20,390 nucleotides of DNA, from positions 1 through 20,390 of the IMG/VR virus record IMGVR_UViG_2579778982_000025. The stretch is one strand, 5' to 3'. How positions within the stretch are numbered: position 1 is the first letter of the stretch; each line of letters opens with the position of its first letter. Both the position numbers and the translations under genes were made by a program. Origin of the DNA: a virus. Its lineage: Duplodnaviria > Heunggongvirae > Uroviricota > Caudoviricetes. Below, one piece after another: positions 1-12,844 of the stretch. The notes below the pieces were generated by a model. The model had not been told where the DNA came from and did not search any database. It worked only from the letters and a program-made list of their open reading frames with translations.

Positions 1-456
1 AGACTCAGCAAAATTGCTGATAACACAGGTAAGCTGGTTGATGAGACGAAAAAACGCATTGGCCCCGGTGATATTGTCTTTAAGAACCTGCCCCGCGCAC
101 TTGCTGTTCGTGGAGAGTGGCAGGAGCGGAAGATTGCGCAGGTCAGTAAGCCTGCCCCCGCAATTACTATCACACCCGTGGTTCCGGCTCCGCTGCCTCC
201 GGCGCTGGTCCCTGTTGTTGCGGCCAGCTCCCGCCCGGTGGCGGAGGCTATACGATCGTCAGTGGCATCAGTTCCTGCAAATTCCCGTAACCGGGAGCCT
301 GTTGCCTCCGGATTTGGCGGTGAAATTCATGTTCATCTGCATAACGTTGTTACACAGAATCCCCGCGAACTGGCGAAACTGGTCGGTGAAATGGTCAGGG
401 CAGAAATGGAACGGCGCGCCCGTGCCGGACGTGGCAGTTTTTACGATAAAGATTGA
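1..456 (+). CDS. phage tail protein, C-terminal part (probable tail tape measure protein; 5' end lies outside the window)
   Basis: Frame 1 is open from position 1 to TGA at 454-456; the ORF track lists only the Met-initiated tail 178..456. Pro/Ala-rich stretch then a charged C-terminus. Sits directly upstream of a gpU-like tail gene, as the tape measure does in P2-type tail modules. Identity is from position and composition only. Confidence 0.45.
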   Translation, partial: RLSKIADNTGKLVDETKKRIGPGDIVFKNLPRALAVRGEWQERKIAQVSKPAPAITITPVVPAPLPPALVPVVAASSRPVAEAIRSSVASVPANSRNREPVASGFGGEIHVHLHNVVTQNPRELAKLVGEMVRAEMERRARAGRGSFYDKD

Positions 457-462
457 GGAGTC

Positions 463-957
463 ATGGCCATGATGATGATCTACGGCATGTTTGTTTTTGA
501 GCTGCGCACATTGCCGCATCAGCAGTTACAGCAAAACAAAAGCTGGCGGCATGTGAAAAATGAGCGCGTAAACCGCTCAGCAAGCTGGCAGTATATCGGT
601 GCAGGTGATGATCGCATCGTGCTTTCTGGCGTGCTTTATCCTGAAATTACAGGTGGCGAAGTGTCGCTTTCGCTGCTGACCACGCAGGCATATACAGGAC
701 GCCCCTGGCCTCTGATTGATGGTGTCGGGCAGATTTACGGCATGTATGTCCTGACCGGAACGAATACGACCCGTTCCGAGTTTGATCGCTACGGTAAGGC
801 GAAAAAGATAGAATTTTCACTGACACTTGAACGCTGTGATGAGGATTTGCGGGAGCGCCTGCAATCCTCATCATTCAGCGATATGCTGTCCGGCTTCAAA
901 GATAAGGTGACATCATCTCTTAACAGCGCGGCCAGTTCAGTTAAAGGGATGTTCTGA
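463..957 (+). CDS. phage tail protein, P2 gpU-like
   Basis: 164-aa ORF, N-terminus MMMIYGMFVFELRTLPHQQLQ... resembles my recollection of the P2 gpU tail protein family. Starts 7 bp after the upstream stop. Exact start (463/469/472, consecutive ATGs) is uncertain. Confidence 0.65.
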   Translation: MAMMMIYGMFVFELRTLPHQQLQQNKSWRHVKNERVNRSASWQYIGAGDDRIVLSGVLYPEITGGEVSLSLLTTQAYTGRPWPLIDGVGQIYGMYVLTGTNTTRSEFDRYGKAKKIEFSLTLERCDEDLRERLQSSSFSDMLSGFKDKVTSSLNSAASSVKGMF

Positions 958-968
958 TTTAACACAAA

Positions 969-1005
969 AACCGCTAATGGTCAGATTAGCGGTTATTTTG
1001 TTTCC
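969..1005. terminator. bidirectional rho-independent terminator between gpU-like gene and invertase 1
   Basis: Perfect 10-bp stem aaccgctaat (969-978), loop ggtcag, attagcggtt (985-994), followed by attttgtttcc on the + strand and flanked by A/T on the other strand. Overlaps the invertase 1 stop codon. Confidence 0.6.
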
Positions 1006-1580
1006 TGACTCTTCTCAATTGTTCCGCTTGATTCTCCTGCGGGGTGGTAACGATAAATCGTCGATATACCAATGCCGTAAATTATTGCCAGTTGTTTTCT
1101 GTCGTGACCGTTTTTAATCAGCCTTGCTATTTGCTCATGCTGTTCTTTTGTCAGCTTCGGTCGACGTCCGCCTGTGCGCCCCCGTGCGCGCGCTGCCGCC
1201 AGTCCGGCCAGTGTACGTTCAACAATTAATTCACGTTCCATTTCAGCCAGGGCCCCCATCACGTGGAAGAAAAAACGCCCCATTGGAGAAGATGTATCTA
1301 TGCTGTCGGTCAGACTGCGAAAATTAATCCCTCGCTCCCGTAGTTCCCCGACGAGAGAAATCAGATGTTTCATGCTTCGCCCGAGGCGATCCAGTTTCCA
1401 GACAACCAGCGTGTCACCTTTTTGAAGGCGCTTTAAAGCGCGTTTTAATCCCGGTCGGTCTGTCTTTGTCCCGCTTAATTTATCTTCAAATATTTGTTCA
1501 CATCCTGCACAAACAAGAGCGTTTCGTTGCAGGTCTGTATTCTGGTCATTTGTTGATACCCTTACATAGCCAATCAGCAC
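993..1580 (-). CDS. serine recombinase, DNA invertase (Hin/Gin/Pin/Cin family), invertase 1
   Basis: Translation (M)LIGYVRVSTNDQNTDLQRNAL...VVWKLDRLGRS...GRFFFHVMGALAEMERELIVERT...GGRRPKL...STIYRYHPAG has the catalytic-Ser N-terminus and C-terminal HTH of Hin-family invertases. Preferred start is GTG at 1578-1580, preceded by GGGAG 7 nt upstream. The ORF track's 1598 start is a TTG with no RBS. The 5' end faces the left crossover site. Confidence 0.85.
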   Translation of the reverse strand: MLIGYVRVSTNDQNTDLQRNALVCAGCEQIFEDKLSGTKTDRPGLKRALKRLQKGDTLVVWKLDRLGRSMKHLISLVGELRERGINFRSLTDSIDTSSPMGRFFFHVMGALAEMERELIVERTLAGLAAARARGRTGGRRPKLTKEQHEQIARLIKNGHDRKQLAIIYGIGISTIYRYHPAGESSGTIEKSQETK

Positions 1581-1634
1581 ACTGAATCTCCCGTCCAAAA
1601 GCGCAAATCATGCCATGCAGGCCAGAAACGGCCA

Positions 1635-1660
1635 TTATCTAAAACCTCGGTTTACAGGAA
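1635..1660. repeat. left inversion crossover site (gix/hix-like, 12-bp half-sites around a TC core)
   Basis: ttatctaaaacc-tc-ggtttacaggaa. Its inverted partner at 4685-4710 (reverse complement ttctcaaaaacc-tc-ggtttgcaggaa) differs at 3 positions and has the same core dinucleotide. Matches the known architecture of Gin/Hin recombination sites. Confidence 0.8.
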
Positions 1661-2605
1661 ACGGTAAATCAGGCTTCTGGCGCATTACAGAAAAAACAGA
1701 ACGGCGCAGATATTCCAGGAAAAGATACCTTCACCAAAAATATTGGTGCCTGCCGCGCATATAGCGCATGGCTGAATATTGGTGGCAATAGTCAGACCTG
1801 GACAACCGCACAATTCATTTCGTGGCTGGAGAGTCAGGGGGCATTTAACCATCCTTACTGGATGTGCAAAGGCTCATGGGCTTATGCAAACAATAAGGTC
1901 ATTACAGATACAGGTTGTGGAAATATTTGTCTTGCAGGTGCTGTGGTGGAAGTTATTGGCACTCGCGGCGCAATGACCATACGCGTTACTACGCCGAGTA
2001 CATCCAGCGGTGGCGGAATTACTAACGCTCAATTCACCTATATTAATCATGGTGATGCTTATGCTCCTGGCTGGCGACGAGACTACAACACGAAAAACCA
2101 GCAGCCTGCATTTGCTTTAGGGCAAACAGGAAGCAGGGTTGCAAATGATAAAGCTGTTGGCTGGAACTGGAATAGCGGCGTTTATGATGCAGATATCAGT
2201 GGCGCATCGACATTAATCCTCCACTTTAATATGAATGCGGGGAGTTGCCCTGCTGTACAGTTCCGCGTGAATTATAAAAACGGCGGTATTTTTTATCGTT
2301 CAGCGCGTGATGGTTATGGATTTGAGGCTGACTGGTCAGAGTTTTACACCACGACCCGCAAACCCTCTGCGGGAGATGTTGGTGCATACACGCAGGCAGA
2401 ATGTAACTCAAGGTTTATTACAGGTATTCGCCTTGGCGGTCTGTCATCTGTTCAGACATGGAATGGTCCCGGCTGGTCTGACAGGTCAGGTTATGTCGTT
2501 ACGGGTTCAGTTAACGGAAACCGTGATGAATTAATTGATACAACTCAGGCAAGGCCAATTCAGTATTGCATTAATGGGACGTGGTATAACGCGGGGAGTA
2601 TTTAA
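1643..2605 (+). CDS. tail fibre protein, variable C-terminal module (no constant N-terminal region or start codon in this orientation)
   Basis: Frame is open from just after TAA (1640-1642) to TAA at 2603-2605 and begins inside the crossover site with codons NLGLQETVN. First ATG is only at 1862. C-terminus ...IQYCINGTWYNAGSI is typical of Mu S / P1 S / e14 Stf-type fibre tips. Followed by a Tfa gene 2 bp downstream. Confidence 0.7.
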   Translation, partial: NLGLQETVNQASGALQKKQNGADIPGKDTFTKNIGACRAYSAWLNIGGNSQTWTTAQFISWLESQGAFNHPYWMCKGSWAYANNKVITDTGCGNICLAGAVVEVIGTRGAMTIRVTTPSTSSGGGITNAQFTYINHGDAYAPGWRRDYNTKNQQPAFALGQTGSRVANDKAVGWNWNSGVYDADISGASTLILHFNMNAGSCPAVQFRVNYKNGGIFYRSARDGYGFEADWSEFYTTTRKPSAGDVGAYTQAECNSRFITGIRLGGLSSVQTWNGPGWSDRSGYVVTGSVNGNRDELIDTTQARPIQYCINGTWYNAGSI

Positions 2606-2607
2606 CG

Positions 2608-3141
2608 ATGATGCACTTAAAAAACATTACTGCTGGCAACCCTAAAACAAAAGAGCAATACCAGCTAACGAAACAATTTAACATCAAATGGCTTTATTCA
2701 GAGGATGGAAAAAACTGGTATGAGGAACAAAAGAATTTCCAGCCAGACACTTTGAAAATGGTCTATGACCATAACGGCGTTATTATTTGTATTGAAAAGG
2801 ATGTTTCAGCAATTAATCCGGAAGGCGCAAGCGTCGTTGAATTACCTGATATTACAGCAAATCGCCGGGCTGATATTTCGGGTAAATGGATGTTCAAAGA
2901 TGGCGTAGTGATAAAGCGAACTTATACCGAGGAGGAACAGAGGCAGCAGGCAGAGAATGAAAAGCAAAGCCTGTTGCAACTTGTCAGGGATAAAACCCAG
3001 CTATGGGACTCACAGCTACGGCTGGGTATCATTTCCGACGAGAATAAACAAAAATTAACCGAGTGGATGCTCTATGCGCAGAAGGTCGAATCCACAGACA
3101 CCTCCAGCCTGCCTGTAACGTTTCCAGAACAACCAGAATGA
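2608..3141 (+). CDS. tfa: tail fibre assembly protein (Tfa / Mu U-like chaperone)
   Basis: 177 aa, [40 protein letters not shown]...[22 protein letters not shown]; conserved Tfa-like N-terminal region. Immediately downstream of the fibre module. Confidence 0.8.
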   Translation: MMHLKNITAGNPKTKEQYQLTKQFNIKWLYSEDGKNWYEEQKNFQPDTLKMVYDHNGVIICIEKDVSAINPEGASVVELPDITANRRADISGKWMFKDGVVIKRTYTEEEQRQQAENEKQSLLQLVRDKTQLWDSQLRLGIISDENKQKLTEWMLYAQKVESTDTSSLPVTFPEQPE

Positions 3142-3144
3142 AAC

Positions 3145-3172
3145 AAGGCCCGCTATCGGGCCTTAATTTTTA
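3145..3172. terminator. bidirectional terminator at the centre of the invertible segment
   Basis: aaggcccg-ctat-cgggcctt hairpin followed by aattttta, between the two convergent tfa genes. Confidence 0.6.
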
Positions 3173-3700
3173 TTCAGGCTTTTGTGGCCATTCAGGATTT
3201 GCCGTATCCACACGGCTGACCAGAACACTATAGCGTTCCCATGACTCCAGTCGTGCGCGTTCCTCATCCGTCGCCATATTCAGCCTGACAGCGCGTTCCA
3301 GTGGCTGAATAACGTTTTCTGCTTCGGAAAGTAACGCGGCCTTTTGTGATTCGGCCTGTTGTTGTTGCTCGTCTGCCGTATAAATCCGTTTAACCACAGC
3401 TCCGTCCTTAAACATCCACTTCCCTGAATCATCGGCACGACGATTGGCTGTTATATCTGGAATCTCAACGACGCTAAAGCCTTCGGGATTAAGCGTTGAG
3501 GCATCTTTGGTTATGGCAACAATAATATTATTTTCGTCGTATACAATCTTTATGGTGTCGTCCTGAAAGTTATTTACTTCTTCATACCAGTTTTTACCGT
3601 CTTCGGACCATAACCAGATAACATCAAAATTCTTTGTTAGCTGATATTGTTCTTTCGTTTTAGGATTTCCAGACTTAATATTTTTTAAATGCTGCATCAT
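3170..3700 (-). CDS. tfa: tail fibre assembly protein, alternative copy (Tfa')
   Basis: 176 aa, [41 protein letters not shown]...; paralogous to 2608..3141, with a divergent C-terminal third as expected for alternative host-range cassettes. Confidence 0.8.
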
Positions 3701-4765
3701 TTACACCTGTGCGACGTTATACCATGTGCCATTGATGTATTTTTGTATTGGCCTGAAGATGGCTTCATCATCGCCATCTACTTCACCAATGATTCTTAAT
3801 CCGGTAATTGCGTGTCCGGCTTTTTCATAACGACCACCACGCGCCATCAATTGAACAACACGTGTGCCAAGTCGGACATCTCTCACATAGCGTGAGTCAA
3901 AATTGCCATAATTGTCGGGAATAACTTGCGCACCACAAAGCCAGTTACCGTTATTATCCATGTACGCCTGACCATCGGTGCCATTGGCTGTCCTTGAGTT
4001 ATTAATCATGTAGATGCCAAATTGCTTGTTCCCCAGTCCACCTATCATGAACTTTCGGTCGGCGTGATTCTGGCGAAGTAACGCCTGAGCGCTATCAGTG
4101 TTAACTATATTTTTCCCAAAGATAGCGTTGTTATCGCGCATCTGAATCCACATACCATTACTGCTGTTAATAGCAAAACGGTCTGAAAGTGTCTCCCCTG
4201 AAACATTAAGACCACGCCCCATCGAAACAGCGCCAGTAGCGTTATTAATCCATAATGGCCTTAATCCGTTATAAGTCCCCATGTTGTCACCGGAGTTTGT
4301 CAACATGAAGTATGTATCTGAACCATCATTACGAATAAAGAATCCGTAATTACCATAAGCAATACGTAGGCCGTTTGCTGATTTTGATATGACTTCGCCA
4401 TTTACAATGGCATTGACAAGAACATACAAAGCATCCCATTTAAGATTCATCAGGTCTTTTGTTGTGGTACTTTGTTTGCTTCTCCATTTGAAATATTCAT
4501 TGCCGTTGTCGCCTGTCTCAAACCACATGTATGAATCAGTGTCACCATCGGCATCATTTTTAAATCCAATCTTCGCCCAGTCAGTATTTCGAATCCAAGC
4601 AAGGATTGAGTCATTTTCAAAAGTAAGCCCACCGGACAAGGTATCGCCATTCTTTTGCACGGCGTTACCAACCCTGTTTACCGTTTCCTGCAAACCGAGG
4701 TTTTTGAGAATTGCCTCTGTGTCGTCTGGACGATATTTTTTTCCGCTTTTAGCAACAATCGCGGT
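3701..4765 (-). CDS. tail fibre protein, alternative variable C-terminal module, fused to a 24-codon remnant of a constant region
   Basis: Minus-strand frame is open from the stop at 4766-4768 down to 3701. Passes through the right crossover site with the same NLGLQETVN codons as the left module. Only 24 codons (TAIVAKSGKKYRPDDTEAILKNLG) lie outside the site. C-terminus ...IQKYINGTWYNVAQV. The ORF-track start at 4693 is a TTG inside the crossover site. Confidence 0.7.
   Translation of the reverse strand, partial: TAIVAKSGKKYRPDDTEAILKNLGLQETVNRVGNAVQKNGDTLSGGLTFENDSILAWIRNTDWAKIGFKNDADGDTDSYMWFETGDNGNEYFKWRSKQSTTTKDLMNLKWDALYVLVNAIVNGEVISKSANGLRIAYGNYGFFIRNDGSDTYFMLTNSGDNMGTYNGLRPLWINNATGAVSMGRGLNVSGETLSDRFAINSSNGMWIQMRDNNAIFGKNIVNTDSAQALLRQNHADRKFMIGGLGNKQFGIYMINNSRTANGTDGQAYMDNNGNWLCGAQVIPDNYGNFDSRYVRDVRLGTRVVQLMARGGRYEKAGHAITGLRIIGEVDGDDEAIFRPIQKYINGTWYNVAQV
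4685..4710. repeat. right inversion crossover site (inverted partner of 1635-1660)
   Basis: Plus strand ttcctgcaaaccgaggtttttgagaa; reverse complement aligns to the left site with 3 mismatches. Confidence 0.8.
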
Positions 4766-4774
4766 TTAGAAAGT

Positions 4775-5329
4775 ATGCAATATGGTTATGCGAGGGTGTC
4801 AACTTTTGACCAGAATTTGGAATTACAACTGGAGGCGCTCAGGAGTTCAGGATGTGACCGGATTTTTGAAGATAAAATATCCGGTGCTAAATCAAAACGA
4901 CCAGGACTTGATAAGCTACTGAAGGTGTTACGTCCGGGCGATACGGTTATTGTCTGGAAGCTGGACCGAATGGGGCGTTCTCTGATTCATCTTGTTGATT
5001 TACTTAACCATTTTTTATCAAACAACATTGAGTTTATTTCGATTACGGAAGGGATAAAAATTAGCACTTCAATTGGCCGCTTTGCCTACACGATGCTGAG
5101 TGCAGTCGCAGAGATGGAGCGGGAAAATATGATTGAAAGAACGCGTGCAGGATTGGCGGTGGCAAGGGCTAACGGCAGGATAGGAGGACGCCGCTCAAAG
5201 CTGGCACCAGAGCAATGGGAACAGATCGGAAGGCTTATTGCGAATGGTGTTTCACGTAAGCGGATAGCGATTATCTTCGATGTTACCTTATCCACGCTTT
5301 ACCGCAGGTTTCCGGCTGGGAATCATTGA
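4775..5329 (+). CDS. serine recombinase (invertase/resolvase family), invertase 2
   Basis: MQYGYARVSTFDQNLELQLEAL...VIVWKLDRMGRS...AVAEMERENMIERT...GGRRSKL...STLYRRFPAG, 184 aa. ATG at 4775; the ORF-track 4655 start is an unsupported N-terminal extension. Candidate promoter TTGCCT (4711-4716) - N17 - TATTTT abuts the right crossover site. Clearly divergent in sequence from invertase 1. Confidence 0.8.
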   Translation: MQYGYARVSTFDQNLELQLEALRSSGCDRIFEDKISGAKSKRPGLDKLLKVLRPGDTVIVWKLDRMGRSLIHLVDLLNHFLSNNIEFISITEGIKISTSIGRFAYTMLSAVAEMERENMIERTRAGLAVARANGRIGGRRSKLAPEQWEQIGRLIANGVSRKRIAIIFDVTLSTLYRRFPAGNH

Positions 5330-5460
5330 CTGGAGTTAGGCCAGTAGTATGATGCTCGCAAAACGAGATCCAATTTAGATCCTTTTACTGGTGGATTATC
5401 GTTCGATCAGTGAGAGACTTCGTGCATGACCGAAAGTGTTGTGGTAGAGTTCTCTTAAAA

Positions 5461-5473
5461 CCACGTAACGTGG
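5461..5473. promoter_or_regulatory. operator-like palindrome CCACG-TAA-CGTGG upstream of the repA control region
   Basis: Perfect 5-3-5 inverted repeat with the same CCAC(A/G)-N3-(C/T)GTGG architecture as the sites clustered in the cI/cro intergenic region; next to a TATGAT -10-like hexamer at 5475-5480. Confidence 0.4.
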
Positions 5474-5511
5474 TTATGATTGTGGGTGTCTGGTTGGAAA
5501 CTGACCAGATA

Positions 5512-5630
5512 TGGAAACAAAAAGCCCGCAGATAAATCTGCGGGCTTCTTGCGACATCCACGGAAAACCAACAACAACAATCCATGGGCGCCTCGACAAC
5601 TCCCATTATACGTTGGTTTTCCGTGGACGC
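5512..5630 (-). ncRNA. candidate CopA-like antisense RNA of the repA leader (IncFII-type copy-number control)
   Basis: Two hairpins in the repA leader. A long stem-loop has a 15-bp stem ccacggaaaaccaac (5558-5572) / gttggttttccgtgg (5612-5626) and a ~39-nt loop. On the minus strand it is followed by aagcccgcaga-ttta-tctgcgggctt (5522-5547) and then a T-run (complement of 5509-5520), a rho-independent terminator oriented for minus-strand transcription. The RNA ends are not mapped. Confidence 0.45.
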
Positions 5631-5642
5631 AAGAGCGAACAT

Positions 5643-6491
5643 ATGGATAGACCAATGCCGTCTCTACGTTCCGCTTACGTTTGTAATTTGTCGCCGGAGT
5701 TCCAGCCTCCAAAGCACCATACGCACAAGCTGCCGCTGGTGTTATCTGATGCTTTACAGCGCATTAATGGGCGTGATCTTACGTGTGAGGTTGCGTTCTA
5801 CGTTAATCAACCGTCAGAGCGGAAGCGCCGGATAAACGAGCATCGTCGTCGGGCGATTAATGCTGTGATCGCTGCGATTTTGCACCATGTAAACATCATT
5901 TCTAAGCGGGTTCTGGCTAGTGCTGAGGCGTTGGCTGATTTTTGCGGCCTGTCTACCGTATCCGAAGCTGGGAACAAGTCTATAACGCGCTGTACAAGGG
6001 CGTTGTCGCAACTGAAAGCGTTAGGGTTTATTGATTATGAACGTCGCTGGGATCGGGTGAATAAACAGTATTGGCCAGCGAAAATAGAGATTCGTGATCA
6101 ACTGCTGGAAACCGTTGGTATTACTGAACAAGCATGGAGACGTGCGGTTAGCCAGAAACTTAATTACTTCAATGCGAAGAATAGCGAACGGCTTAAAAAA
6201 GCGATAACGGAGGCTGATTATAAGCGTATTGTTATTCAGGAGCAGATGGAGAATGTATGGCGTCAGAGGAAGACGGCCAGAGAGATAAAGGCAAAACAGA
6301 AAGCAGCGGAGAGAGCTGCGCGTCTTGTTCGGGAAAAGGGAGAGGCCGAACTTCGTCATCAAATCACTAGAGAGGTTAGCCAGGAATTTGCTGATGGCAT
6401 GTATCCTGGAGCTGACCTTGCATATTTACGATCCCTCGTTGAGCAGCGTTATAACAGGTTAAGAAAGACCTGGAAATCACTCCAACATTAA
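5643..6491 (+). CDS. repA: plasmid replication initiator RepA (IncFII RepA1-like)
   Basis: ...GNKSITRCTRALSQLKALGFIDYERRWD... resembles the R100/R1 RepA1 motif (..KLSITRATRALTFLSELGLITYQ..), with an Arg/Lys-rich C-terminal half. Preceded by antisense-RNA-like hairpins and followed by a DnaA box plus AT-rich region. Start at ATG 5643 (MDRPMPSLRS...) is preferred because the ORF-track start at 5511 lies inside the antisense terminator hairpin. An IncFII-type leader peptide may exist in another frame ending at 5648-5650, but I cannot place its start. Confidence 0.75.
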   Translation: MDRPMPSLRSAYVCNLSPEFQPPKHHTHKLPLVLSDALQRINGRDLTCEVAFYVNQPSERKRRINEHRRRAINAVIAAILHHVNIISKRVLASAEALADFCGLSTVSEAGNKSITRCTRALSQLKALGFIDYERRWDRVNKQYWPAKIEIRDQLLETVGITEQAWRRAVSQKLNYFNAKNSERLKKAITEADYKRIVIQEQMENVWRQRKTAREIKAKQKAAERAARLVREKGEAELRHQITREVSQEFADGMYPGADLAYLRSLVEQRYNRLRKTWKSLQH

Positions 6492-6599
6492 CCCACCTTA
6501 ATGATGAATCCGGTTTTACCGGAGGATTATCTACGTCGCAATAAAATATCTGTTCAAAAAACAAGCTAAATTAATTTTCTCTAAACCTGAACACAGCAA

Positions 6600-6740
6600 A
6601 AATATCGCCTTCACAGGCATCGGCTAATAAAGTTATCCACAGTTTTGATATGTATATGCAAATGGTTTTTTATAATAGATGCACTAAACAAATAAATGCA
6701 AAATCACTTTCTTTTATTAAGACTTTCTTTATTTAACTTA
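6600..6740. other. putative replication origin (DnaA box plus AT-rich unwinding region)
   Basis: Perfect DnaA box TTATCCACA at 6633-6641, ~140 bp downstream of repA, followed by ~100 bp of very AT-rich sequence (6642-6740). Matches the repA-then-oriR layout of IncFII replicons. Confidence 0.5.
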
Positions 6741-7134
6741 CGCAGGCTTTGCCTGTGAATATGTTCGCCCTTGCAGCGAGCTAAAGCTCGCGCCGGTTCG
6801 AGTCGCTACGCTCAAATATACCTCCTCCGGCACTTGCCGGAGGCATGGAGCAGCCTGATCATCCTTTTCGAAACGGCGCGTTTCGAACTATACAAAATCA
6901 ATTTATATAAGGCCGAAATGAGGCCTACGGCCGGGCTTTGCAGGAGGAAGGAGCGAGCCTTATCGATAAACGTCGATAAATACGCACACAGTAGCCATCA
7001 GAACGCGATAAAACGTAAGAAACATCATTTCCTATTAGACATAGAAAACTTGTCTTATACGCAATGTAGTAAATTTCTATTGCCACATAGGAAAAGATTT
7101 CCTACCATCGTAGATATAATAAATGGAGATGGTT

Positions 7135-7422
7135 ATGGATAAAGATACTGTTTTAAAAATGTTGAATCCGGCTTGTTTAAAAAAAGCGGATGAATGGGAA
7201 TCTCCTACATGTGGAGAAGTTCGGGCAGTCATTGGCCTGACCGGAATGAGCGGCTCGCAGTTGGCCAAAAAACTAGGCTTAAAAGATAGTCGCAATGTTC
7301 GCAACTGGCAGATGTTAAAGGAGTCCACATCCAGATCCAGCATTCCGTATGCAGCCTGGGCGCTGCTGTGTTACTTCGCTGGGTTAGGGTTAATCTTCAT
7401 TGATAACAAAACAGATGTTTGA
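7135..7422 (+). CDS. hypothetical protein with putative HTH motif and hydrophobic C-terminus
   Basis: ATG 7135 preceded by GGAG (7125-7128). 95 aa, MDKDTVLKMLNPACLKKADEWESPTCGEVRAVIGLTGMSGSQLAKKLGL... ending in IPYAAWALLCYFAGLGLIFI. No family recognised. Confidence 0.5.
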   Translation: MDKDTVLKMLNPACLKKADEWESPTCGEVRAVIGLTGMSGSQLAKKLGLKDSRNVRNWQMLKESTSRSSIPYAAWALLCYFAGLGLIFIDNKTDV

Positions 7423-7445
7423 AACATGCAAATATGAGGTTTGTT

Positions 7446-7709
7446 ATGGAACTTGTACGCAAAACACGCAAAGAGTTCTTGGACCTGTATCGCATGGGAG
7501 CTTTCACTTGTGTTGTGGCTACCCAGGACGAAGTGACAAAAAGCTGGCGGCTTTTTGCTCTCAATAAAAAAGGGATTGCCGTTTTCATTGAAAAAGCCCG
7601 TGGTGGTATCCGCGAATGGGCGGGATTGAATTATGTGGCTGATTTTTGCGCAGCTATGGGGATTCGTCGCTGGGAAGTCCATATGCCAGGAGTAAAGTCA
7701 CAAAAATAG
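7446..7709 (+). CDS. hypothetical protein
   Basis: ATG 7446 preceded by GAGG with 6-nt spacing, 24 bp after the upstream gene, so likely one operon. 87 aa, MELVRKTRKEFLDLYRMGAFTCVVATQDEVTKSWRLFALNKKG.... ORF-track start 7419 is probably too long. Confidence 0.45.
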   Translation: MELVRKTRKEFLDLYRMGAFTCVVATQDEVTKSWRLFALNKKGIAVFIEKARGGIREWAGLNYVADFCAAMGIRRWEVHMPGVKSQK

Positions 7710-7891
7710 GGCTTTCGCGTCGAAAATGAGGCGAAACTGAAAACGAGATTTCATTAACAAATAAGCAACATAAAAAACGGTGGAAAACGCCCAGGAAAAC
7801 ATGATCTTTTGAGCGGATTTTTTAGATCCGACAATGAACGGTGATCCGGTGGTGCCGATAACGTCCATTATGTTAAATAGCCCCGTTTTTC

Positions 7892-7945
7892 TTGAAATTA
7901 TAACCTACGGGTTATATAGTTAGTGATATAAACTACAGGTTATAG
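7892..7945 (+). promoter_or_regulatory. sigma70-type promoter with two operator palindromes for the toxin-antitoxin operon
   Basis: TTGAAA (7892-7897) - 17 bp - TATAGT (7915-7920). Inverted repeats tataacc-tacg-ggttata (about 7899-7916) and atataaactacaggttatag (7926-7945) overlap the -10 and start region. RBS AGGA at 7944-7947. Confidence 0.55.
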
Positions 7946-7953
7946 GATTGAGC

Positions 7954-8301
7954 ATGTGGACGGTACTTTTTAGCCAGCGATTTGACGACTGGCTAAATGA
8001 GCAAGAAGACGCTCTTCAGGAAAAGGTTTTGGCTGATTTGAAAAAGCTACAGGTTTACGGACCTGAGTTACCCAGGCCATATGCCGATACCGTAAAAGGT
8101 TCTCGGTACAAAAATATGAAAGAGCTTCGCGTTCAGTTTTCTGGCCGTCCGATAAGAGCCTTTTATGCGTTCGATCCGATTCGCCGGGCCATCGTTCTTT
8201 GTGCAGGAGACAAAAGTAACGATAAACGGTTTTATGAAAAACTGGTGCGTATAGCTGAGGATGAGTTTGCAGCACATCTGAACACACTGGAGAGCAAGTA
8301 A
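7954..8301 (+). CDS. higB: type II toxin, RelE/ParE superfamily (HigB-like, phage Gp49-type addiction-module killer)
   Basis: MWTVLFSQRFDDWLNEQEDALQEKVLADLKKLQVYGPELPRPYADTVKGSRYKNMKELRVQFSGRPIRAFYAFDPIRRAIVLCAGDKSNDKRFYEKL.... Toxin-first order. Stop TAA overlaps the ATG of the downstream HTH gene by 1 nt. The ORF-track start 7948 is a TTG; ATG 7954 has the RBS. Confidence 0.7.
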   Translation: MWTVLFSQRFDDWLNEQEDALQEKVLADLKKLQVYGPELPRPYADTVKGSRYKNMKELRVQFSGRPIRAFYAFDPIRRAIVLCAGDKSNDKRFYEKLVRIAEDEFAAHLNTLESK

Positions 8302-8600
8302 TGAGAACATTAGATGAGGTGATTGCCAGCCGTTCACCTGAAAGCCAGGCGCGAATTAAAGAAATGGCAGATGAGATGATTCTTGAGGTCGGCTTGCAGA
8401 TGATGCGTGAAGAACTCCAGTTATCACAAAAACAGGTTGCTGAGGCGATGGGTATAAGCCAGCCAGCAGTAACAAAGCTGGAGCAGCGCGGAAATGATTT
8501 AAAGCTGGCGACGTTAAAACGTTACGTTGAAGCTATGGGAGGCAAATTAAGCCTGGATGTTGAGCTTCCCACAGGAAAGCGAGTAGCGTTCCATGTCTAA
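8301..8600 (+). CDS. higA: type II antitoxin, XRE-family HTH (HigA-like)
   Basis: 99 aa with central HTH (LSQKQVAEAMGISQPAVTKLEQ). Translationally coupled to the upstream toxin gene. Confidence 0.7.
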   Translation: MRTLDEVIASRSPESQARIKEMADEMILEVGLQMMREELQLSQKQVAEAMGISQPAVTKLEQRGNDLKLATLKRYVEAMGGKLSLDVELPTGKRVAFHV

Positions 8601-8612
8601 CATAATGTAAGT

Positions 8613-8640
8613 GTAAGGCCCCATTGGGGCCTTACTTATT
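8613..8640. terminator. bidirectional terminator
   Basis: gtaaggcccc-attg-gggccttac hairpin followed by ttatttactt, between convergent genes. Confidence 0.6.
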
Positions 8641-8924
8641 TACTTACCATTTTTGCGGTTTTTTTCGGACTTCATAAGCTGGCTAACGCGCCCTGGTGTG
8701 ATATTTAACATGCGGCTTACTTCAGCTTGTGATCCTACTTCCTCTACTAGCGATGCAACATAGCGAGATTTTCCTGAGGAGGTTAATCCATTATATGTTG
8801 CTCGTGCGACTTTTCCCTGAGCTTCTCTCATATCAACTAATGCCTGAGCAACTTGCTCAAAACCTTTAATTGTTACTTCTGTTAATGCTCGAATAGCATC
8901 AATTTCAGATTTTGGTTTAGCCAT
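8640..8924 (-). CDS. putative DNA-binding regulator (C-terminal HTH)
   Basis: MAKPKSEIDAIRALTEVTIKGFEQ...VGSQAEVSRMLNITPGRVSQLMK. ATG at 8924 with GAGG 6 nt upstream. ORF-track start 8936 is a TTG. Confidence 0.5.
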   Translation of the reverse strand: MAKPKSEIDAIRALTEVTIKGFEQVAQALVDMREAQGKVARATYNGLTSSGKSRYVASLVEEVGSQAEVSRMLNITPGRVSQLMKSEKNRKNGK

Positions 8925-8972
8925 TTGGTACCTCAAATTGTTTAAAATGTGTTAATTACAAAATTCAGCCGA

Positions 8973-8997
8973 TACCATGTTCAATGGTATACCATTG
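8973..8997. promoter_or_regulatory. palindromic operator candidate (CAATGGTATACCATTG)
   Basis: Perfect 16-bp palindrome at 8982-8997, overlapping a second inverted repeat TACCAT-N5-ATGGTA (8973-8989), in the divergent intergenic region between 8640..8924 and 9192..9572. Confidence 0.4.
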
Positions 8998-9085
8998 CTG
9001 AAATGTCTTTTTCAAGACCTTGCCAATAAGCTAAACAAAAATGTTTAATCATTCGCCTAAAAAAACACCAGTCACTATTATTTAT

Positions 9086-9186
9086 ATAATTATATATTTA
9101 TATAAAAAGTGCTTTACAGGTGGGAAAAAATTTCCTAAGGTTATACCCGAAACCGAGCGATACCCGCCCTGGTTAAACCGGAGATA
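9086..9186 (+). promoter_or_regulatory. repeated promoter / 5'UTR cassette, copy 1
   Basis: Near-identical to 19153..19252. Contains TTTACA - 17 bp - TAAGGT (TATGGT in copy 2) promoter-like hexamers, a ~55-nt leader and a GGAG RBS, preceded by AT-rich palindromes. Confidence 0.5.
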
Positions 9187-9191
9187 ACCCG

Positions 9192-9572
9192 ATGAGCATG
9201 ATTAAAATCCGCAAAAACGCTTTCCTTAAAATTCAAACTATCCTGGCTGGTTCTGTTGGCGTGATTTGCCGTTCTTCTTCAAGCCGCATCGATGACGGCT
9301 ACGATGATGAGTACCGTGTGTCCTCGTGCGATGAGGCTTTAACCTGGCTGAAGGAGAATCAGGAACGTGCCCAGGTATATCTGGAAACAGAGAACGGCAA
9401 TCAGATGCTGCGTATTAGCGGTCGTTATGGATTTGAAACTACATTCATGGCCTATTTTAATCAGGCTTACTTTGACAAGGAGTTGGCCTGGTACACTGAT
9501 CGCATGAGCAAAAGCGAGCCAGCCCCGATTACACCGCCGAACAATAAACCATTTTTATTCCTCGTTAAGTAA
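9192..9572 (+). CDS. hypothetical protein
   Basis: 126-aa ORF driven by the repeated promoter cassette. Acidic, no recognisable motif. Confidence 0.5.
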   Translation: MSMIKIRKNAFLKIQTILAGSVGVICRSSSSRIDDGYDDEYRVSSCDEALTWLKENQERAQVYLETENGNQMLRISGRYGFETTFMAYFNQAYFDKELAWYTDRMSKSEPAPITPPNNKPFLFLVK

Positions 9573-9580
9573 ACACAATA

Positions 9581-9607
9581 CGCAAAGTGTCATTTTGACA
9601 CTTTGCG
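9581..9607. promoter_or_regulatory. 27-bp perfect palindrome (hairpin or operator)
   Basis: cgcaaagtgtca-ttt-tgacactttgcg, 9 nt after the 9192..9572 stop and 29 nt before the XRE-family gene. No U-tract follows, so it is an operator or RNA stability element rather than a classic terminator. Confidence 0.4.
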
Positions 9608-9635
9608 AGTGTTAATATTGTGCGAGGAGGATGCT

Positions 9636-9908
9636 ATGACGGGTTATGAATTGAAATTATGGCGTCGTGGGATGAACTGGACGCAGGAGCGAGCCGCCGA
9701 AGAATTTGGGATATCGTTGGCTACATATAAGCGATATGAGAAGGGGGAGCCGCCGAGGGTCATTGAGATGGCCATTCGCGTTCTGTCGTTTGACGATATG
9801 GTGAAGGATCTTTCACACCTTGATAAAGACGCGATTCTGTTAAGGCTGCAAACCCTTGTATGGGAAAAGGTTAAAGTGTCGTCAGAATTGGAACAAGGGA
9901 TCAAATGA
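9636..9908 (+). CDS. XRE-family HTH transcriptional regulator
   Basis: MTGYELKLWRRGMNWTQERAAEEFGISLATYKRYEKGE.... RBS GAGGAGG (9624-9630). The ORF-track start 9603 is upstream of the RBS. Confidence 0.7.
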   Translation: MTGYELKLWRRGMNWTQERAAEEFGISLATYKRYEKGEPPRVIEMAIRVLSFDDMVKDLSHLDKDAILLRLQTLVWEKVKVSSELEQGIK

Positions 9909-9957
9909 TCCTTTACGGATCGTTTTATGGTGGTGTAATGTAAGCGCCAGAAAGACA

Positions 9958-9985
9958 AAAACCGCCTTGCCGGGCGGTTTTCAGT
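9958..9985 (+). terminator. rho-independent terminator
   Basis: aaaaccgcc-ttgccg-ggcggtttt hairpin, then tcag. Confidence 0.5.
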
Positions 9986-10543
9986 CTGAAATTTAAATCT
10001 TGCTTGGTAGGCTGGATTTAAAAAGACACCTCTTGATTGGGGCGGCTTTCTTGCGTCTAAAGATAATCAAATCTTTTTGCGCCTGCAACCCCTTTTTTAC
10101 TGGTGCCTGTTTCAGACTCACGCTCGCGTCGTTGTCTTTGCCACTTCGTTGGGTTCGGTGTTTTTGGGCGGAGTGGCGCGCGGGTATGCGTACAAGGGGA
10201 AAGTGTGCTGACGCAAGCCAGGAACAGCGATCTAAACTAAGTCGAGTCTGAGAAAGGCAGGAGTGCGACAACTCGCCTGTGCTCTATGAGCAGAAGAAGG
10301 TATATCAGACGACCAATGGCATGATTGTGGGCCACAGGGCGCACACGGCGGCGAAGCATTGGAAACGATGTGGAGCTATCTGGTGGCATGAGTTCCGGTA
10401 CTCGATCTCGAGCTTTTTTTGATGCTTTTGAGAAGGGGCCGGAACTCCGGTAAAGGGCACCCTGTATGGGGGGAGGGGGGGTTGTGTCTAAAGGAAGATC
10501 CAATACGATATTGCTTTACCCTTATATCTAAAAGGAGATTTCT

Positions 10544-11179
10544 ATGGGGATGCTGGTGGCGTTTATTATTAGCCTGATTTTGTGTTTCTTCGTAGTTCGT
10601 GGTGCATATCGGAAACAATGTGGCCCATCTTCTGGTAGTAAGTTCAAAGCTGTTTTAGTGAGTGGGTTTCTTGGGATTGCTACTTTTGTTGTTGTTAATA
10701 CTCTTGCTGCTGTGGCCTTGATTCCAGAAGACTCCGGCACTACGGCTACTACCGGAGCTGCTTTCGATGGCGTGACCGTAGATAAGTTTAAGCAGCTATA
10801 TAATGATGACCTTGAAGGTATCGCTACATCAGGAAAATCCACCTCCACTATAAGAATTAAGTCAGTTAAACAAGGTAACAACACCGTTGAATTTGCCATC
10901 AATTCATCTGTTAACGGTCGAGCTAGAGTTGATAAGGATGGGAAGATTTCAGAGTTATTATGGCGAGTATCTAAGCCTAGCTCTGATTCCTTGCTTTCTA
11001 TGGCCGTAGCTGTTGAAGTCTTGGATGCATCAAGTGATAGAGACACAGTGATCGCGCAGTTAGAGCAGATTGTTAAATCTGATACGCAGAAAGCTGAGTT
11101 TAAGACTAAGAGAGGCGAGTATTACGTTTCTCGTGACAAATCAGGGCACGTGTCGCTACTGATTACACCGAAATATTAA
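10544..11179 (+). CDS. membrane protein with two predicted N-terminal transmembrane helices, function unknown
   Basis: Strong RBS AAGGAG 7 nt upstream. Hydrophobic segments MLVAFIISLILCFFVV and VLVSGFLGIATFVVVNTLAAVALI, then a Ser/Thr-rich soluble domain. Confidence 0.65.
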   Translation: MGMLVAFIISLILCFFVVRGAYRKQCGPSSGSKFKAVLVSGFLGIATFVVVNTLAAVALIPEDSGTTATTGAAFDGVTVDKFKQLYNDDLEGIATSGKSTSTIRIKSVKQGNNTVEFAINSSVNGRARVDKDGKISELLWRVSKPSSDSLLSMAVAVEVLDASSDRDTVIAQLEQIVKSDTQKAEFKTKRGEYYVSRDKSGHVSLLITPKY

Positions 11180-11188
11180 GAATTGAAG

Positions 11189-11216
11189 AAGCGCCCAAAT
11201 CGGGCGCTTTGTTTTA
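11189..11216. terminator. bidirectional terminator
   Basis: aagcgccc-aaatc-gggcgctt followed by tgtttt, between convergent genes. Confidence 0.6.
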
Positions 11217-12356
11217 TGGTTTTGCACCTGCGGCCAGTTTATCCGCCGATATCTTTATCAGTTCCTGTAGTGTCCTGGCTGGTAGGTTTGCATCCAGTAC
11301 GCTGAGTATGCTGCTGTGATCTGCCTGGTCGACTACTTTGCCTGTCGGTGGTAGTAGCTTGAGCTGAGGATTCAGGTTTTCGTCAAAGCTGATCAGTGCT
11401 CTGGCGTTTCTGAGCAGATCAAGAAGTAAGGCTGATATCACATTTTCCTGAGTCATTGCTGGCAGATTTAGCGCCGCTTTGGTTTTCCCTGTTGCCTTGT
11501 CAAACTCCTTGATTAGTTCCTTCCTGTAGTTCGGTTCCGTTAATAGCCGATTATGCTCTGTTGCCGCGCGGATAATCGTTTTTTCCTGGTACAGTCGTTT
11601 AGCCAGATCACGCTCGTACTGTGTTTTTAACACGCTGCTGATAGCGTTAAAGGCTTCAATGTAGGCCAGCTTGATATCTTTCACGCTTGGACCGTCGATG
11701 CTCTCCATGAGTAAGGTAAATCCGTCTTTTGTCATGCGATAGATTGTTATTTCGCGGTCGCTTCCTTCCAGCGGTCGTTGCTCTTTAAAGAAGTGACGCG
11801 CCGCAGCCGTGCGAGGAATGCGTAGCGCATCGATGGCCATAACGATGGAATTGTTTGTGGTGCTGAATGCCTGGGCAACATCGGCTGAGGTTGTGAGTGG
11901 CTCGTTGTTGCACACTTTAATGTAAAACATCGGTTTGGCGTTGAGCGTATCGACAACCTCACGAGCATTGTTTGGCGAGACGGTAACGGTCGCGGCCGTT
12001 TGCGCGTTCTGGTTGAAGTAGCAGTCTTCCAGCCGTTCGAACACATCCCACGCTTGGTTAGTTTCAAGCATTTTGGCGTGACGTGCAGCCCCGCGTTCGG
12101 TCCAGAGGATTAGTTTTCTAACGTTATTCGCGATGGTTTGAAAATCTCTTAAAGAGATTTTCAAACTTTGGAGATCTGTACCTTTTACAACTATGAAATG
12201 TTTTCCTTCTGTAAACCGGGACTTATTACGGTGGTGATTTCTGTGAAGACATTCGACGCTACAGCCATATAGTTTGGCAAGCAGCTCCGTGGTGATAACG
12301 GGGATCTGGTTATGCAGGATAGGCTGTAGGGTGTTAACGGTCGGAAGCGTTTTCAT
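11214..12356 (-). CDS. phage antirepressor-like protein (ORF6N/Rha-type N-terminal DNA-binding domains, long C-terminal region)
   Basis: 380 aa. N-terminal ...ITTELLAKLYGCSVECLHRNHHRNKSRFTEGKHFIVVKG... resembles ORF6N-type antirepressor domains; a second similar segment ...TTSADVAQAFSTTNNSIVMAIDAL follows. Family assignment is from memory of motifs only. Confidence 0.55.
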   Translation of the reverse strand: MKTLPTVNTLQPILHNQIPVITTELLAKLYGCSVECLHRNHHRNKSRFTEGKHFIVVKGTDLQSLKISLRDFQTIANNVRKLILWTERGAARHAKMLETNQAWDVFERLEDCYFNQNAQTAATVTVSPNNAREVVDTLNAKPMFYIKVCNNEPLTTSADVAQAFSTTNNSIVMAIDALRIPRTAAARHFFKEQRPLEGSDREITIYRMTKDGFTLLMESIDGPSVKDIKLAYIEAFNAISSVLKTQYERDLAKRLYQEKTIIRAATEHNRLLTEPNYRKELIKEFDKATGKTKAALNLPAMTQENVISALLLDLLRNARALISFDENLNPQLKLLPPTGKVVDQADHSSILSVLDANLPARTLQELIKISADKLAAGAKP

Positions 12357-12640: not shown

Positions 12641-12844
12641 GATACCCGGCGAGCCTTACGGCTCCCCCGCACGCCCCACCATAATTCGGGTGTAGCTGTG
12701 CTTTACGCATAAAAAAACCGCTAACGCGGTATGCGCCATGATGATTATCGGGACGCCAATCCCGACCGTAGATTTTGCTACGGCTCGGAAAGTGTCCACC
12801 AATGGCGCATTTATGTCAATACAGCGGGATTTTAACAGACTAAA

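Follow-up and report, generated by a model that had tools for sequence, protein, structure and literature searches.

The segment from position 5326 to about 6890 of the window (the whole 20,390-nt stretch of viral DNA analysed here) is very probably the basic replicon of a p-p47-family phage-plasmid, in which an antisense RNA would control copy number through refolding of the repA leader. The p-p47 element is a temperate, myovirus-like phage of about 48 kb that persists as a circular plasmid of low copy number in E. coli and relatives. Both its phage-plasmid nature and the antisense control of repA have already been reported and are not new, so the discovery value of the present analysis is small. 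The exact regulatory parts described below, i.e. an antisense promoter inside its target hairpin, two competing pairings in the leader and an origin reaching to about 6890, provide concrete targets for reading copy-up mutations and for typing elements that are missed by standard replicon typing.

The replicon is shared with phage-plasmids of the p-p47 family

The 1.47 kb replicon of the window (1471 bp) was found with 98-99% identity in 59 non-mobilizable plasmids of approximately 47-52 kb, mostly from E. coli, and with the same identity over 1471 bp in three deposited phage genomes. To the replicon of CP032086.1, a listed member of the p-p47 phage-plasmid family (bioRxiv 10.64898/2026.08.19.745698), it is 99.0% identical, and the window agrees with this family in backbone gene order and nucleotide identity. 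From about 1635 or 4670 to 20390 the window is collinear with the 47-52 kb plasmids. It encodes tail-fibre and assembly genes, an invertase, RepA, ParA, a toxin-antitoxin pair and a CI-like repressor, as well as a c4 RNA with antirepressor. Phage structural and lysogeny genes stand here together with plasmid replication and partition genes, as the general definition of a phage-plasmid demands. Tail, invertase, toxin-antitoxin, ParA and repressor genes are neighbours of the replicon in the 59 plasmids too, the gene neighbourhood recurs in 10 further contigs, and complete virion gene sets are present in the relatives. The cluster of identical RepA proteins holds 525 member sequences on 505 contigs; p-p47 is a common family.

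The plasmid state of family members has been shown, with a copy number of 1.2-2.6 per cell that depends on the region immediately upstream of repA, and their transfer as virions, which requires a tail gene, was demonstrated experimentally (bioRxiv 10.64898/2026.08.19.745698). According to the same preprint resistance genes can be part of these elements, and changes of their copy number cause antibiotic heteroresistance. The first-pass annotation had read the region as belonging to a plasmid prophage; the 59 plasmids, the three phage genomes and the preprint's data on virion transfer and copy number support that reading. Membership in the pSLy3 group, which was guessed first, was dropped, as published papers place pSLy3 in the SSU5 supergroup of about 100 kb. 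A literature search for the names of the Yersinia phages among the relatives (vB_YpM_39/41/44) found no paper.

Table 1. Coordinates of the replicon parts and adjoining features in the window
Feature	Position	Strand	Remarks
Hin/Cin-type DNA invertase of the tail-fibre inversion segment	4775-5329	+	Pfam Resolvase and HTH_7
repA promoter, TTGACT-16-TATGAT	5326-5353	+	promoter scan 10/12
repA mRNA leader, about 295 nt, highly structured	5360-5654	+	folding; consensus fold of five relatives
Predicted antisense (countertranscript) RNA, about 84 nt	5515-5598	-	5' end inferred within about 3 nt
GC-rich hairpin	5523-5546	both strands read	on the minus strand followed by UUUUUGUUU, intrinsic terminator for the antisense RNA
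Long leader hairpin, proposed 'anti-sequestor'	5547-5634	+	covariation, slid controls
Candidate leader ORF, starting in the apical loop	5584-5835	+	weak; the preferred model does without it
Antisense RNA promoter: -35 TTGCGT 5632-5627, 16-nt spacer, perfect -10 TATAAT 5610-5605	5605-5632	-	sequence
Proposed alternative 'sequestor', 5611-5626 with 5637-5658 (including AUG 5655)	5611-5658	+	folding with the target blocked
repA, replication initiator	5655-6491	+	278 aa; 282 aa if the start is 5643
DnaA box TTATCCACA	6633-6641	+	exact; left edge of the origin
AT-rich origin core	6642-6760		A+T 67-78%
Three conserved GC-rich hairpins, about 6777-6793, 6824-6843 and 6867-6887	6775-6887		outside the interval of the first-pass annotation

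RepA and its translation start

The ORF 5511-6491 matched Pfam PF02387 (IncFII_repA) with an E value of 1.3e-43 over residues 53-319. RepA passed the cutoffs of PF02387 (149.8 bits, cutoff 22.9) and of NF040977 (RepA_IncFII_LM; 232.2 bits, cutoff 70), whereas against the IncFII-specific equivalog TIGR03474 it scored 79.3 bits (cutoff 446.9; IncFII control 579.9). The label 'IncFII-type' from the first-pass annotation hence stands at the superfamily level and falls at the IncFII-specific level, where the RepA model, Rfam CopA, Tap and CopB all speak against it. Aligned with IncFII RepA1 by BLASTP, to which it had been likened, RepA matched over just 105 aa with 40% identity. A search for solved structures of RepA relatives found none.

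As judged from the alignment, translation of repA probably begins at 5655, or at 5643, and not at 5511. This start is preferred because its codon is common to the relatives and the extension upstream of it is not conserved. The gene drawn from 5511 in the first-pass annotation is thus probably over-long. Likewise, the 326-aa version from ATG 5511, as in RefSeq, was rejected; in-frame stops occur upstream of the common start, at 21 nt in the relative L010 and at 90 nt in L003.

A structured leader with two proposed competing pairings

The left neighbour of the replicon is the invertase gene, annotated as recombinase or DNA-invertase in the relatives, and its stop codon overlaps the -35 element of the repA promoter. 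Both the -35 and the -10 element are kept in five relatives, one of them without an invertase upstream. Between the invertase stop (5329) and the inferred mRNA start (at about 5360) lie approximately 30 nt with no conserved small ORF, and a copB-like ORF, whose absence the first-pass annotation had noted, does not fit between that stop and the leader. The leader contains two GATC sites (5367 and 5378). Its + strand (5360-5660) folds with a minimum free energy of -116.7 kcal/mol (z -8.5), far beyond chance; for 5505-5650 of the minus strand the values are -68.6 kcal/mol and z -7.4.

The long leader hairpin consists of a lower stem (5547-5553 with 5628-5634), an upper stem (5557-5572 with 5612-5627) and an apical loop that carries the invariant GCCUCGACAAC. 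In this hairpin 95.4% of cells were paired, compared to 31-45% in slid controls, four pairs had compensatory changes, and none of 500 shuffles reached its covariation score. L012 and L007, the clade at 60% RepA identity, have an equally shaped hairpin whose stem sequence is unrelated. The lower stem also covers the AAGAG (5631-5635) upstream of AUG 5643, given which the state proposed as 'ON' may be not fully open.

When the antisense target was blocked in the folding, the alternative pairing formed in all five sequences. The alternative duplex amounts to -13 to -16.2 kcal/mol in eight relatives though their start-region sequences differ, and it was significant in 8/8 sequences: no more than 2.8% of shuffles equalled it, and among other repA windows no more than 2.7% did. 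The sequence alignment holds a single clean compensatory pair for this hairpin. RNAalifold proposed a long-range helix of 5398-5404 with the repA start; it is broken in several sequences and was rejected.

A predicted antisense RNA with its promoter inside the target hairpin

The antisense promoter sits within the 3' arm and the apical part of the leader hairpin. A perfect TATAAT with a TTGCGT or TTGCAT -35 element at 16-18 nt was found in the window and in eight relatives, including clades with wholly different stems. The predicted RNA is composed of the 5' tail GUUGUCGAGGC, stem-loop I (5592 to 5553) with a U/G-rich loop of 16 nt (5580-5565), a terminator stem-loop and a U-run; its exact ends are sequence-based predictions. 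It folds with -41.1 kcal/mol (z -6.3), its consensus fold shows compensatory pairs, and in relatives with a located terminator the predicted length is 78-86 nt. The terminator hairpin, which shows a compensatory change from A-U to G-C in relatives, has no U-run on the + strand, where CUUCUUGCG comes next. Rfam returned a sub-threshold structural match for the antisense RNA; the models CopA, PK-repBA and RNAI gave no usable match in the leader, and the controls worked. A longer antisense RNA spanning the whole hairpin was rejected; the sole candidate promoter for it (TAGAGA-18-TATGTT, about 5637-5666) lies in poorly conserved sequence.

We propose that the repA mRNA begins at the sigma-70 promoter and carries the leader of about 295 nt, and that copy number would be set post-transcriptionally by the antisense RNA of about 84 nt made from the TATAAT promoter inside that leader. 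As long as the antisense RNA is absent, the long hairpin 5547-5634 would form, the repA start region would be free and RepA would be made. The antisense RNA would base-pair with this hairpin at its apical loop, its CAA-repeat region and its 5' arm; the 3' arm thereby freed (5611-5626) could then pair with the repA start region (5637-5658) and translation would be blocked. RepA, a member of the IncFII/IncL-M superfamily, would be expected to open the origin just downstream of its gene. The evidence for this putative refolding switch comes from about eight sequences (seven of them distinct) and from thermodynamic folding.

Mutants described in the preprint are consistent with this region as the control site: 14 of 15 high-copy mutants had changes in the interval 58-86 nt ahead of repA, and copy-up mutants showed unaltered repA transcript levels (bioRxiv 10.64898/2026.08.19.745698). 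Counted from 5643, that interval corresponds to 5557-5585 of the window, which is stem-loop I of the predicted antisense RNA including the (CAA)4 loop, and counted from 5655 to 5569-5597; the mapping depends on the repA start that the preprint used.

An origin downstream of repA

The region downstream of repA is built like an oriR: a DnaA box precedes AT-rich DNA, and there are no iterons. Exact copies of the box occur just twice in the 20 kb window. A lone 9-mer is little proof, and the conservation of its position adds weight: the box lies 123-143 nt past the repA stop in nine of the ten RepA relatives scanned, and at +142 in the window. The AT-rich core contains three ATGCA(A/C) motifs and two ACTTTCTTTwwTTAA repeats; an iteron array was looked for in the origin region and none was found. 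The best-conserved non-coding DNA downstream of repA spans 6630-6890, and its blocks are conserved both in relatives with 74% identity at the DNA level and in those whose RepA is 60% identical. At its right end lie the three GC-rich hairpins, which reach z about -3 when folded as single-stranded DNA, on both strands, and of which hairpin 1 shows compensatory changes. They probably belong to the functional origin and might act as priming or primosome-loading signals.

repA, the structured leader with an antisense RNA gene, and the downstream DnaA box with AT-rich origin, all named in the first-pass annotation, are present and conserved in the relatives. The interval given there, 5330-6740, covers repA, the leader and the box but is too narrow at both ends: the -35 element of the promoter begins at 5326, and the conserved origin block extends about 150 nt further, to approximately 6890.

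Alternative explanations

Control of the classical IncFII kind (R1/R100), where CopA blocks translation of Tap that is coupled to repA and CopB acts as transcriptional repressor, could be expected from the placement of RepA within Pfam IncFII_repA, from a leader countertranscript of similar size and from the DnaA box and AT-rich DNA downstream of repA, arranged as in the IncFII control L005 (box at +176); the preprint moreover names the RNAs CopA and CopT (bioRxiv 10.64898/2026.08.19.745698). We regard it as very improbable, since the TIGR03474 score is far under the cutoff (79 vs 447 bits), Tap (TIGR03475) has no match in the window (60.6 bits in the control), Rfam CopA has none at E<=1 (101.5 bits in the control), there is neither room for copB nor a copB-like ORF (the control has an 85-aa gene), the RepA alignment is confined to the 105 aa mentioned above, nucleotide homology to the IncFII oriR is not significant (z 1.5) and MOB-typer found no typeable replicon. 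Membership in the R1/R100-type IncFII group is already contradicted by these results. A tap- or repY-like arrangement would have the antisense RNA hide AUG 5584 of the leader ORF, whose translation through the 3' arm would otherwise open the repA start. This AUG does lie within the antisense target, it is kept in five close relatives with an ORF running across the repA start, and the AAGAG is covered by the lower stem. Yet it is CUG in L015-L017 and absent in L012 and L007, no Shine-Dalgarno sequence precedes it, the ORF stops 28-180 nt inside repA and not at the repA start, most substitutions in its conserved part are non-synonymous and track the stem covariation, and no Tap match was obtained. 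This arrangement thus appears quite unlikely, and a Tap/RepY-like leader peptide was dismissed as weakly supported. Transcription attenuation, in which the antisense RNA causes premature termination of the repA mRNA instead of a translational block, would be in line with the strong hairpin 5523-5546 in the leader and with the logic of alternative hairpins known from attenuation systems such as those of pT181 and pIP501. That hairpin, however, is upstream of most of the antisense target and is not followed by a U-run on the + strand, a scan found no + strand terminator in the leader, and the copy-up mutations in the preprint leave the repA transcript level unchanged (bioRxiv 10.64898/2026.08.19.745698), so that attenuation can hardly be considered probable. 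Refolding of the leader that hides the repA start is the reading we prefer.

A different question is raised by the left end. Positions 1-1635 of the window consist of P2-like prophage DNA of the chromosomal type, which the invertible tail-fibre segment connects to the remainder: 1-1700, carried by 618 genomes at a coverage of at least 80%, matches a chromosomal P2-like prophage (tape measure, GpU, invertase) with 99.6% identity, and over 1-3904 the identity to the same prophage is 97.5%. The junction is either an assembly chimera or a cointegrate. This copy might accordingly not have resided on a free phage-plasmid but in a p-p47 element fused to a chromosomal P2-like prophage, or in a defective remnant; the P2-like identity fits this, the genes for baseplate J, tail protein I and the constant tail fibre, upstream in the relatives examined, are missing in the window, and the whole window was found in no complete E. 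coli genome. We nonetheless consider it unlikely, as the junction falls within an invertible segment of about 3 kb that is common to both element types, the 15.7 kb from approximately 4670 on are collinear with circular plasmids and the replicon parts are all intact. A mis-join is at least as likely because three of the ten draft contigs shown (L024-L026) start inside the tail-fibre segment. A real fusion of p-p47 with the P2-like prophage in the cell, at or within the common gix-flanked invertible tail-fibre segments, seems rather improbable; if real, it would have arisen through the tail-fibre DNA invertases or by recombination, and the phage-plasmid could then move between plasmid and integrated state via the region that switches host range.

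Comparison with known systems

With the IncFII plasmids R1/R100 (copB-copA-tap-repA-oriR) the window shares the RepA superfamily (PF02387, NF040977), a constitutive countertranscript in the repA leader that is about 85-90 nt long and has two stem-loops, post-transcriptional control, and an origin downstream of repA with a DnaA box, then AT-rich DNA and no iterons. It differs by the absence of CopB and Tap, and no ORF ending at the repA start was found in the relatives examined. The antisense RNA gene is another one, without a match to the CopA covariance model (RF00042), and its promoter is located inside the target hairpin. RepA aligns with that of IncFII over a short part only, the origin has no detectable sequence similarity, and the proposed output is a refolding that would hide the repA start, not a block of leader-peptide translation.

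The replicons of IncB, the IncI complex and IncL-M (repY-repZ or repB-repA) are activated by a pseudoknot (Rfam PK-repBA) and, to our knowledge, lack CopB as well. The joint IncFII/IncL-M equivalog of NCBIfam includes the RepA of the window, and the closest full-length RepA outside its clade, with 37% identity over 272 aa, belongs to a plasmid (L004) whose leader has the IncB/IncL-M-type pseudoknot. Unlike this plasmid (60.4 bits), the window gave no match to PK-repBA. No conserved leader peptide was found in it, it lacks the UUGGCG loop, which a relative at 63% identity (L006) has, and inspection of the folds revealed no loop with complementarity to the repA start region.

Phage P1 is likewise a temperate myovirus-type phage kept as low-copy plasmid; both have a partition gene of the ParA type, a Cin-type invertase with an invertible tail-fibre segment, and an immunity module of c4 antisense RNA and antirepressor. 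The plasmid replicon of P1 is iteron-controlled, whereas that of the window has no iterons and is controlled by antisense RNA. The p-p47 genome is about half the size of P1, and p-p47 does not cluster with the P1 groups (bioRxiv 10.64898/2026.08.19.745698).

The closest systems are the p-p47 members p-pDA63040_49, p-pDA63330_49 and p-pDA63656_47, the 48.5 kb plasmid of E. coli ATCC 25922 (NZ_CP009073) and the three Yersinia phages. The window differs from them in its first 1.6 kb, which are P2-like prophage DNA in place of the baseplate and tail-fibre genes of the family, and in its second invertase (993-1598). The replicon itself is 98-99% identical, the regulatory region is the one in which the preprint places the copy-up mutations, and invertase, repA, HigB-like toxin-antitoxin pair, c4/ant immunity module, ParA and CI-like repressor follow in the same order.

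Membership in the p-p47 family

The interval 5330-6800 matched 59 PLSDB plasmids over its full length at 98-99% identity, the majority being E. coli plasmids of 47-52 kb typed as non-mobilizable, and the three deposited genomes of the Yersinia phages vB_YpM_39/41/44 were equally near. One of the matches is the 48.5 kb plasmid of ATCC 25922, in which the same invertase-repA junction is preceded by a full set of genes for the tail, baseplate and tail fibres, and the gene order was the same in 10 more contigs with identical RepA. CP032086.1 (PLSDB hit H79) was 99.0% identical to this interval.

Exactly such elements are described as a new family of 118 members, p-p47, in a preprint (bioRxiv 10.64898/2026.08.19.745698). 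The preprint names CP032086.1 (94,204 bp) as a member, and describes the family as having no relation to any of the ten recognised types of phage-plasmid and as one that MOB-typer cannot type. It further reports that phage preparations transfer these elements, that a tail gene is needed, that copy number is 1.2-2.6, that 14 of 15 high-copy mutants are altered 58-86 nt upstream of repA and that the repA transcript level is unchanged in copy-up mutants. The phage-plasmid nature and the antisense control of repA are thus already on record for the family. The phage-plasmid reading of the first-pass annotation is thus supported by 59 plasmids and three phage genomes, with membership in the previously described p-p47 family established via CP032086.1.

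The left end of the window did not follow this pattern. Positions 1-1700, which encode the C-terminal end of a tape-measure protein, a P2 GpU protein and another invertase, of Pin/Cin type (993-1598, minus strand), matched at 99.6% identity a P2-like prophage of E. coli chromosomes. This prophage was present at a coverage of at least 80% in 618 genomes. Similarity to this prophage went on at 97.5% to position 3904, and from 4670 onward identity to p-p47 was 98.7-99.3%. The invertible tail-fibre segment, through which the two parts are joined, is flanked by an invertase on either side and by gix-like crossover sites (1636-1661 and about 4686-4710), with no constant tail-fibre gene. No complete E. 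coli genome contained the whole window, and this left-end arrangement was absent from the 10 compared contigs that have an identical RepA; three of these draft contigs start inside the tail-fibre segment. An assembly mis-join through a shared repeat of about 3 kb is the leading explanation, and we regard a true cointegrate of p-p47 with P2-like prophage DNA as unlikely. The replicon anatomy is unaffected by the anomaly, but for the copy in this window a plasmid state is putative.

Gene neighbourhood and the start of repA

The surroundings described in the first-pass annotation, i.e. tail-fibre genes, a CI/Cro immunity region, and partition and toxin-antitoxin genes, were all found (see table). 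Additionally, the ryfA sRNA family gave a full-length match on the plus strand (13826-14122; 144.7 bits, gathering score 80), lying between the gene for the HTH regulator and those for partition.

Features around the replicon in the window
Feature	Coordinates	Strand	Position	Details
Hin/Cin-type invertase	4775-5329		left of repA	
Invertible tail-fibre segment			left of repA	2 tail-fibre C-terminal genes, 2 tail-fibre assembly genes
repA-containing ORF	5511-6491			326 aa; Pfam IncFII_repA, E 1.3e-43, residues 53-319
Gp49/HigB-like toxin with HTH antitoxin	7948-8600		right of repA	
ORF6N/Rha antirepressor with P1-type c4 antisense RNA module (P1-type immI module)	11214-12797	minus	right of repA	
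ORF6N/Rha antirepressor gene	11214-12356	minus		part of immI module
Ash-like ORF	12353-12640	minus		part of immI module
C4 antisense RNA	12599-12686	minus		81 bits; part of immI module
isrK	12711-12784	minus		70.9 bits; part of immI module
c4 a1/b1 target sites	12745-12797	minus		part of immI module
ParA ATPase	14637-15305		right of repA	
CI-like HTH/S24 repressor	15908-16564		right of repA	

Judged from sequence comparison, RepA is most likely a protein of 278 aa starting at 5655 (MPSLRSAYVCN), because this start coincides with the annotated and conserved positions in the five nearest relatives of distinct sequence (DNA 74% identical; RepA 81-85% identical in four and 62% in L010). In the relatives, the in-frame extension to 5511 either contains stop codons or has no codon to start from. 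The AUG at 5643, which would give 282 aa, is possible; its position is conserved, but three relatives have it in another reading frame than repA.

In three relatives at about 60% RepA identity, an additional ORF of 158-162 aa separates the antisense module from repA (L007 and L008, 5516-6004; L011, 112-588); the window lacks it. In L007 and L008 this ORF and the start of repA share an ATGA overlap, and in L007 and L011 its product weakly resembles the winged-helix core of RepA. It may encode a small paralogue of RepA whose translation is in tandem with that of repA.

Antisense RNA and leader structure

The minus strand opposite the repA leader contains a perfect TATAAT (5610-5605) with TTGCGT (5632-5627) 16 nt further upstream, and a GC-rich hairpin from 5546 to 5523 followed by UUUUUGUUU. 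This promoter and terminator pair was found in the window and eight relatives, including L007, L008 and L012, where nearly all flanking sequence differs; L011 is counted by its promoter, the terminator lying off the short contig. The predicted antisense RNA is 78-86 nt long. Its fold (-41.1 kcal/mol, z -6.3) consists of a 5' tail, a first stem-loop whose U/G-rich loop measures 16 nt (5580-5565), and a terminator stem-loop. The sole other candidate promoter, for a longer antisense RNA, sits in non-conserved sequence and was rejected. Two GATC (Dam) sites, 11 nt apart (5367-5381), directly follow the -10 element of the repA promoter near the expected transcription start; the pair is kept in four of five aligned sequences (the window and three relatives) and may link replication timing to methylation or SeqA.

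The sense leader forms a long hairpin (5547-5634). In an alignment of eight sequences, seven of them distinct, 95.4% of cells were paired, compared with 31-45% when partners were slid; four pairs showed compensatory changes, and none of 500 shuffles reached the observed covariation score. Relatives at about 60% RepA identity have a hairpin of the same shape with unrelated stem sequence; it retains the apical motif GCCUCGACAAC, and TATAAT again lies within it. That the antisense promoter is conserved within its own target hairpin is a modest addition to what is known. If counted from 5643, the mutation interval of the preprint would correspond to 5557-5585 and so coincide precisely with stem-loop I and its (CAA)4 loop; conditional on the start used there, a 3-bp slippage deletion like the one reported may easily be imagined in this loop.

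When the antisense target was blocked in silico and the leader refolded, the freed 3' arm paired with the 20 nt before and including the repA start codon in all five sequences. The duplex between the 3' arm and the start region reached -13 to -16.2 kcal/mol in 8/8 sequences, with start-region sequences differing between lineages; duplexes this strong were reached by no more than 2.8% of shuffled sequences and by no more than 2.7% of the other repA windows. We favour, as a model inferred from folding, a translational switch in which the 5' arm would act as anti-sequestor, the antisense RNA would take this arm away and the 3' arm would then hide the repA start. The switch agrees with the post-transcriptional action of the copy-up mutations that the preprint reports. 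Control of repA by a Tap/RepY-like leader ORF from AUG 5584 seems improbable: the ORF is present in five relatives, but three others have CUG in place of its AUG and the distant clade lacks this codon. Moreover, no Shine-Dalgarno sequence precedes the ORF, and it ends 28-180 nt inside repA. The two-state pairing of the switch model would be a modest, directly testable addition.

Origin and replicon boundaries

Downstream of repA, the proposed DnaA box and AT-rich origin were borne out by an exact box (6633-6641) and an AT-rich core, in which ATGCA(A/C) occurs three times and a short direct repeat twice. In nine of 10 RepA relatives scanned, the box has a conserved position, +123 to +143 relative to the stop codon of repA; in the IncFII control it is at +176. 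Repeat inspection of the window revealed no iteron array in the conserved block of the origin. Besides the AT-rich core, this block contains three GC-rich hairpins, the first with compensatory changes, which may, by analogy with R1, be priming or primosome-loading signals.

DNA conservation was strong from the DnaA box to about 6890, and 6492-6630 was not conserved. The functional replicon therefore probably ends, judging by this conservation, near 6890 and not at 6740; the region proposed previously (5330-6740) is confirmed, with its right end to be shifted accordingly and the repA start to 5655 (or 5643). A 123-aa TTG ORF (6771-7142) that overlaps the conserved origin hairpins had no family match and is most likely not a gene. 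On the left, the family members L020, L021 and L023 have no invertase or inversion segment, and a tail-fibre assembly gene or another gene adjoins the same repA promoter; since other genes are joined to this promoter, the boundary at about 5326 is a recombination seam.

Comparison with IncFII and related replicons

The designation "IncFII-type" holds at the level of the IncFII/IncL-M superfamily and fails for IncFII proper. RepA scored 232 bits with NF040977 RepA_IncFII_LM (cutoff 70; IncFII control L005, 273 bits), whereas with TIGR03474 incFII_RepA it reached 79 bits, below the cutoff of 447 (L005, 580 bits). In the window there was no match to Rfam CopA at E<=1 (L005, 101.5 bits) or to the Tap leader peptide TIGR03475 (L005, 60.6 bits), and the absence of a copB-like gene upstream stood, as the stretch before the leader offers neither space nor an ORF for it (L005 carries an 85-aa gene). 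Direct comparison with IncFII RepA went against the assignment too, BLASTP with L005 aligning only 105 residues at 40% identity. The origin is alike in layout to IncFII oriR, without significant sequence similarity.

Outside the clade, the nearest RepA of full length (37% identity over 272 aa) is encoded by a KPC plasmid of Enterobacter, whose leader matches Rfam PK-repBA, the pseudoknot of IncB/IncL-M type; the window leader gave no match to it. In place of IncFII proper, the window has a replicon of the IncFII/IncL-M superfamily that possesses an antisense system of its own. RepA proteins about 60% identical were found in another kind of phage-plasmid, which has a Mu-type baseplate, and on a plasmid carrying transfer genes of VirB type, so the replicon module has moved between backbones. 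In L006 (63% RepA identity, VirB-type conjugative context), a leader hairpin at 5858-5925 has the loop UUGGCG, the classic motif of antisense targets in IncFII and the I-complex; different leader designs are thus paired with RepA proteins of one clade.
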